From sequence record PQ666541: a stretch of DNA of 64,000 nucleotides. One strand, 5' to 3'. Below are positions 15,023-15,300 of the stretch, in pieces. The translations under genes and the position numbers were made by a program. The stretch is from Shigella phage sb3. The notes below the pieces were generated by a model. The model searched no databases and was not told the DNA's origin. It worked only from the letters and a program-made list of their open reading frames with translations. How positions within the stretch are numbered: position 1 is the first letter of the stretch; each line of letters begins with the position of its first letter.

Positions 15023-15300
15023 TCAAAATGTAATTTCTAACCAATCACCATCACGCTGATCACTATTGACTTTAAAGCTAAATCCTTCTTTTCTCAGCCA
15101 ATCACCAATTTCTTCAGTAATCAATTTATCGCGAGCAGTACAATAATAACTAAAATATGTTTTACCTTGTTCAGCTGCTTTATTAGCAAGTTCCGAAAAA
15201 TCTTTAATAAAACACTCTAGTTTAAACTGTTTACTTTTAAGTGCTTTTCGCGTAATTGATTAGCAAAAGATTCATTTTCATAAAGATCATACTGTTCCAT
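15023..15300 (-). CDS. Small ORF (24.2-like, about 92 codons) split by a -1 frameshift at a TTTAAAC heptamer
   Basis: ATG at 15298-15300 reads 27 codons to TAG at 15217-15219; the -1 frame continues 65 codons to TGA at 15023-15025, 9 nt before the rnlB ATG. Confidence 0.4.

Follow-up and report, generated by a model that had tools for sequence, protein, structure and literature searches.

The window analysed here, that is, the whole stretch of 64,000 nucleotides from Shigella phage sb3 (record PQ666541), belongs to the late region of a Tequatrovirus (T4-like) genome, for which megablast retrieves more than 500 related phage records. The gene order hoc - 24.3 - 24.2 - rnlB - gp24 is common to T4, REP2, G10400, SsoM_113, sb2, phage 132 and pSs-1. 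Around the small gene that lies between 24.3 and rnlB, the following features can be distinguished:

12696-13979, plus strand: gp24, part of the surroundings (hoc and inh also lie nearby)
14009-15013, minus strand: rnlB (RNA ligase 2), downstream neighbour, intact according to the sequence and to the annotations of relatives
15023-15300, minus strand: probable frameshift-disrupted copy of T4 gene 24.2, 278 nt here as against 279 nt (92 codons) in relatives, from alignments, NP_049791.1 and phrog_2416
15217-15300, minus strand: truncated frame actually encoded, 27 codons plus TAG, with residues 1-19 ancestral and residues 20-27 (HLKVNSLN) out-of-frame junk
15245-15248, minus strand: lesion, an A4 run (GAAAAG) aligned with A5 (GAAAAAG) in T4 and other relatives
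15220-15226, minus strand: T_TTA_AAC heptamer, probably coincidental, including the synonymous Lys AAG/AAA site at 15221 (ancestral frame CAG TTT AAA CTA)
15217-15219, minus strand: premature TAG, an out-of-frame TAG within the ancestral codons CTA-GAG
15023-15259, minus strand: ancestral (-1) frame, open, encoding gp24.2 residues 15-92 plus TGA, with no ATG or GTG
15287-15502, minus strand: gene 24.3 (DUF2774, small HTH-like protein), upstream neighbour, 71 codons (PF11242, E = 5e-31)

The encoded frame starts with an ATG at 15300, overlapping the end of 24.3 by 14 nt, and reads 27 sense codons (MEQYDLYENESFANQLREKHLKVNSLN) up to a TAG at 15219-15217. Its closing codons are AGT-TTA-AAC, so that a T_TTA_AAC heptamer is found at 15226-15220, with the phase X_XXY_YYZ. 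From 15259 on, the -1 frame is open; past the slip point it continues for 65 codons (LECFIKDF...DWLEITF), until a TGA at 15025-15023 that is located 9 nt ahead of the rnlB ATG (15013) and is overlapped by the GAGGA Shine-Dalgarno (SD) motif of rnlB. An initial annotation had described this layout, with 27 codons, a TAG directly after AGT-TTA-AAC and a 65-codon -1 frame finishing 9 nt before the rnlB start, and had proposed that it could reflect programmed -1 frameshifting. Upon re-reading of the sequence, all the positions hold.

Sequence comparisons identify the locus as orthologous to gene 24.2 of bacteriophage T4, a conserved accessory gene of small size (NC_000866.4, NP_049791.1, "uncharacterized 11.0 kDa protein"; phrog_2416). 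A single CDS of 279 nt and 92 codons is annotated at this place in T4, REP2, G10400, SsoM_113, sb2 and phage 132. When one A is restored in the window sequence, a 92-aa protein is obtained that is 100% identical to that of many records and 96.7% identical to T4 gp24.2. The repaired protein matches phrog_2416 without a break over residues 10-92, across the interruption of the frame (E = 3.6e-41). Used as a tblastn query, it finds 694 phage records, 651 of which have one match covering at least 80% of it, and even the ~53%-identical homologues from Mosigvirus span the break. As in T4, the gene is placed between 24.3 and rnlB, with an equal overlap of its start with 24.3 and a stop 9 nt before rnlB. 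In contrast, T4 and ~497 other records (out of 499, the assignment of the window-type frame resting on the matches listed) have 92 contiguous codons, whereas the window copy is split by a 1-nt deletion. As to function, gp24.2 has no Pfam family, and only PHROGs of unknown function match it; no relative was found among solved structures (best E = 0.79), and a literature search on 24.2, 24.3 and rnlB returned only irrelevant papers.

Nucleotide alignments show that the relatives read CGC-GAA-AAA-GCA-CTT where the window reads CGC-GAA-AAG-CAC, one A being gone from an A5 run (alignment to phage 132 and sb2 puts the gap at 15245-15249). The missing A thus lies outside the heptamer, ~20 nt (six to seven codons) before it. 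Over a 96-nt core, no record is 100% identical to the window, and the 30 best matches differ from it only by the extra A. When IMG/VR, the JGI metagenomes and the GTDB genomes were scanned for the exact A4 pattern, no match was found, while the A5 version is present twice in IMG/VR. The same lesion is nevertheless already in GenBank, in Shigella phage pSs-1 (KM501444 / NC_025829, 110814-111091), which has the position-matched A4 deletion and the premature TAG, is the closest genome overall and has other lineage-specific indels in common with the window. In RefSeq, all that is annotated for pSs-1 at the corresponding coordinates is a remnant of 33 codons beginning with TTG. In agreement with the shared deletion, tblastn with the truncated 27-aa product as query retrieves 499 records, and among the matches listed only that of pSs-1 extends through residues 20-27 in this frame; the other matches listed, ranked by coverage times identity, end at residue 22. 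pSs-1 differs from the window in having CGA and not CAA at 15257, and T_TTA_AGC and not T_TTA_AAC, hence no slippery heptamer. The comparison with the orthologous small gene in T4 relatives, suggested in the initial annotation as the way to tell a recoding site from a plain indel, therefore gave a contiguous 279-nt ORF, essentially the outcome named there as speaking for the indel. The plain indel considered in that annotation is borne out as regards a single-base difference from T4 and relatives with contiguous genes, but the base in question belongs to the upstream A5 run and not to the heptamer.

This raises the question of whether the heptamer is a recoding signal. In the ancestral frame, CAG-TTT-AAR-CTA, position 15221 is where the Lys codon varies synonymously between AAG and AAA. 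Intact copies of the gene with TTTAAAC are known from at least 30 records, and there the string is read TTT-AAA-C, in a non-slippery phase. Conversely, pSs-1, which has the deletion, carries AAG at this position, and the resulting T_TTA_AGC is unable to re-pair. Since the deletion occurs without the heptamer in pSs-1 and the heptamer occurs in at least 30 intact copies, the slippery base and the frameshift are unlinked. Consistently, the two-frame layout with its slippery site is not conserved: ~497 of the 499 records have a single ORF, and the other split copy, that of pSs-1, lacks the heptamer. As judged from these sequence comparisons, T_TTA_AAC beside TAG results from a synonymous Lys variant that is common, and is not a recoding signal.

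How often such an arrangement arises by chance can be evaluated. In-phase X_XXY_YYZ heptamers are found at 88 of 17,645 codons (0.5%) in the window ORFs of at least 100 aa. Among 57,905 simulated random 1-nt deletions, a heptamer is flush with the new stop in 0.43% of the cases; in 7.6%, the segment separating deletion and stop contains one. The heptamer-stop arrangement is uncommon but not extraordinary, a post-hoc coincidence in a genome of 36% GC.

The efficiency to be expected from the heptamer can be appreciated from a study in which all 64 heptamers were measured in E. coli (Sharma et al., 2014; PMC4066793). The values quoted hereafter for U_UUA_AAC are published reporter values for the exact heptamer, placed in a sequence context other than that of the window. 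Without stimulator, U_UUA_AAC gave 0.092 ± 0.015% frameshifting, as compared with 0.055 ± 0.031% for the background without motif; the IS911 stimulators gave 0.063%, and the IS3 pseudoknot, a strong one, raised the value to 0.351%, as compared with 15.8% for U_UUA_AAG with that pseudoknot (PMC4066793). In bacteria, the rule requires cognate re-pairing of the tRNA in the A site, which fails from AAC to AAA (PMC4066793). Moreover, neither type of stimulator could be recognized in the window. Upstream, no GGAG or AGGA is found as an SD-like element in the 25 nt before the heptamer. Downstream, the predicted structure of 109 nt (-19.9 kcal/mol, z = -1.14) is not significant, 22 of 200 shuffled sequences being equally good, and its helix starts within the heptamer itself. 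The absence of a strong downstream stem or pseudoknot had already been remarked in the initial annotation, and this folding agrees with it.

Comparison with known frameshift systems leads to the same picture. The coronavirus (IBV-type) U_UUA_AAC signal has an identical heptamer in an identical phase. It differs by operating on eukaryotic ribosomes, by needing a pseudoknot 5-7 nt downstream and by being strictly conserved, whereas the window has neither the structure nor the conservation, and in its bacterial host the heptamer is used at 0.09-0.35%. With dnaX (A_AAA_AAG), IS3/IS911 and the tail-assembly chaperone G/GT, the locus has in common two overlapping frames, the downstream one having no start of its own. 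However, in these bacterial and phage programmed -1 sites the motif permits the A-site tRNA to re-pair cognately (AAG/AAA, UUY), stimulators of the SD-like or structural type are present, and the two-frame layout is conserved; none of the three applies to the window locus. Put as four tests of a programmed -1 site, the phase of the heptamer and the overlap of the frames are present, while three of the four, a host-appropriate motif, a stimulator and conservation, are lacking. Programmed -1 frameshifting as initially proposed is thus not backed, the heptamer being unconserved, near background in E. coli and devoid of stimulator; in the initial annotation it had been held equally possible with an indel, and only the indel finds support. 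Transcriptional slippage was also considered and is ruled out, as the run at 15245-15248 is only A4. Programmed transcriptional slippage typically needs a homopolymer of at least 7-9 A or T.

A weaker form of recoding deserves separate consideration. Leaky, "savior" -1 frameshifting might partly rescue 24.2, either at T_TTA_AAC-TAG or at the A_AAG of the deletion site. In its favor, the heptamer has the required phase and adjoins the stop, a coincidence of ~0.4% per random deletion; the -1 frame is fully open; and 24.2 shows no decay between its two split carriers. Besides, GAA-AAG holds A_AAG, the tetramer on which E. coli ribosomes shift most readily according to published measurements, and a slip there would restore the exact ancestral protein. 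However, the measured efficiencies leave little room for such a rescue: 0.092% as against ~0.055% for the heptamer, and, for tetramers such as A_AAG without a strong pseudoknot, 0.147% as against a background of 0.112% (published E. coli measurements). An SD-like or structural stimulator is missing, pSs-1 has no heptamer, and, among the matches listed, none of the ~497 other records conserves the arrangement. In addition, a slip at the heptamer would give HLKVNSLN in place of ALKSKQFK at residues 20-27, altering A20 and K24, both invariant out to Mosigvirus. We thus regard a partial rescue as very unlikely. The junction peptides predicted for the two slips are HLKVNSLNLECF (VNSLNLECF) for the heptamer and EKALKSKQFK for A_AAG. 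One version of this proposal is historical: an AAG-to-AAA change at 15221 occurring after the deletion would have brought the heptamer against the stop and, together with A_AAG, a low level of savior frameshifting would keep a gp24.2-like protein. If true, this would explain why the downstream frame stays intact, but we give it very little credence.

The C-terminal part could also be made separately, by internal initiation or reinitiation, for instance from the 33-codon TTG ORF at 15124-15023. An ORF caller indeed annotated a 33-codon ORF in pSs-1, and the window has the equivalent ORF. Yet the ancestral frame downstream of the break contains no ATG or GTG; its sole start-like codon is the TTG at 15124 (33 aa), which is not preceded by an SD motif (GCTCGCGATAAATTG). 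The fragment would comprise no more than the C-terminal third of the 92-aa protein, and no homologue begins there. Such a separate product appears extremely improbable, and reinitiation in the ancestral frame is ruled out by the lack of ATG, GTG or SD.

Altogether, we favor, with a probability of about 80%, the view that the loss of 1 nt from an A5 homopolymer, a genuine and inherited deletion, has inactivated gene 24.2 and that the heptamer is coincidental. According to this scheme, the loss of 1 nt in the A5 run (15245-15248) would break the frame of 24.2. Ribosomes starting at the ATG at 15300 would translate 19 ancestral codons and then eight out-of-frame codons, before stopping at the TAG contained in CTA-GAG, and the remaining 65 codons would not be translated to a useful extent. 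The AAG/AAA Lys variant would predate the deletion and be independent of it. The biological weight of such an event would be small: one more small, non-essential T4-type accessory gene would have been lost to a homopolymer indel. For annotation purposes, the locus should be recorded as a disrupted 24.2, or re-sequenced, rather than described as a recoding site. More generally, caution is needed with eukaryote-style slippery heptamers, which are frequent in AT-rich phage genomes, U_UUA_AAC being near-inert in E. coli.

The scheme supposes that the deletion is real. Alternatively, the phage may truly have A5 and an intact 24.2, the missing A being a homopolymer under-call in the window record (and in pSs-1). 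The lesion is indeed a homopolymer length change, and pSs-1 was sequenced by Sanger and Ion PGM, the latter a platform prone to homopolymer indels (PMC4789750). As seen above, neither the ~497 other phage records nor the IMG/VR, JGI metagenome and GTDB genome sets contain A4, and 24.2 shows no sign of decay. Furthermore, the two A4 carriers have different flanking haplotypes: they differ at 15221 and 15257, the two flanking polymorphic sites, and either haplotype is known with A5, so that a recurrent origin or a recurrent error is conceivable. It should, however, be noted that A4 is found in two separate records that are 3.3% diverged, and that, when the two assemblies are compared over 64 kb, neither shows homopolymer errors dispersed along the sequence. 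Only few uncompensated indels separate them, which rules out a noisy assembly; elsewhere, the tail-sheath gene is split in sb2, and a small gene in phage 132. The other indels that they have in common resemble real lineage markers, including a GG insertion, which is not a typical under-call, and the frame-breaking lesions all spare essential genes. For these reasons, we consider an under-call unlikely.

Two further lines of evidence are consistent with an inherited deletion. First, pSs-1 is the closest relative of the window (97.5% over the first 25 kb, 96.7% over 50 kb). The two are sister genomes, and they appear from the alignments to have in common nearly all the other frame-changing indels relative to phage 132; this near-identical set fits inheritance from a common ancestor. 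Second, all three frame-breaking lesions of the window hit small genes that are uncharacterised; by our tally, genes of this kind account for about one-sixth of the sequence. All the large structural and enzymatic genes are intact. This is the pattern expected after selection and not from random error. On the basis of sequence, the lesions match the pattern expected for natural loss of dispensable accessory genes. We infer that 24.2 is dispensable and that its deletion belongs to the phage genome and is no error of base calling.

The gene itself is unusually conserved at the nucleotide level. Between the window and pSs-1, two of 278 nt differ in 24.2, as against 16 of 413 nt (~3.9%) in the adjacent part of rnlB, which, taken alone, would speak against a long neutral decay. 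Intact copies of 24.2, however, are equally invariant, with a mean pairwise difference of 1.5% as against 3.6% in rnlB. Because intact 24.2 is just as invariant, this comparison has no power to detect relaxed selection between the A4 carriers; the segment is young or constrained everywhere. Such an invariance suggests either a recent recombinational sweep or a constraint at the nucleotide level. Across Tequatrovirus genomes, variable third positions amount to 8 of 93 in 24.2 (15023-15300) and to 36 of 138 in the adjacent rnlB (14601-15013).

Several other small genes carry lesions, in the window or in its relatives. At 40890-41092 (minus strand), a 66-codon ORF that is intact in phage 132 and sb2 is split into 32 and 45 codons in the window and pSs-1, owing to a 2-nt insertion (GGGG vs GG at ~41014). 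At 51254-51498 (minus strand), an 81-codon ORF located between frd and the DUF5417 gene is split only in the window, being intact in pSs-1; the break is a 1-nt deletion at ~51402 (TTTTCTGAC to TTTTTGAC on the minus strand), leaving pieces of 35 and 46 codons. The region ~36850-37530 is devoid of annotated CDS in pSs-1, gp220 being skipped in RefSeq, and two small ORFs are annotated there in phage 132. With a net -2 indel relative to phage 132 at ~37221, it may be another decayed accessory gene. Gene 24.3 varies as well: it has lost 1 nt in a terminal A-run at its 3' end in G10400 (~318), has a 33-nt in-frame deletion in T4 and lacks both ATG start codons in sb2.

The hoc gene, upstream of 24.3, is also variable. 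At its stop codon lies a variable hexanucleotide tandem repeat (15580-15603; ATAATC on the minus strand, TTATGA on the plus strand), adjoining a terminator hairpin (GGGGCTTCGGCCCC); the window is 12 nt longer than pSs-1 there, and the copy number varies among relatives. Hoc (15604-17022, minus strand) has 472 aa in the window and pSs-1, as against 376 aa in T4, and that of the window contains internally repeated Ig-like segments (repeated motif "NKKTQTTTLAVTPA..."). Nowhere do the window and pSs-1 diverge more than in the hoc region, with 59 mismatches in 16500-16999.
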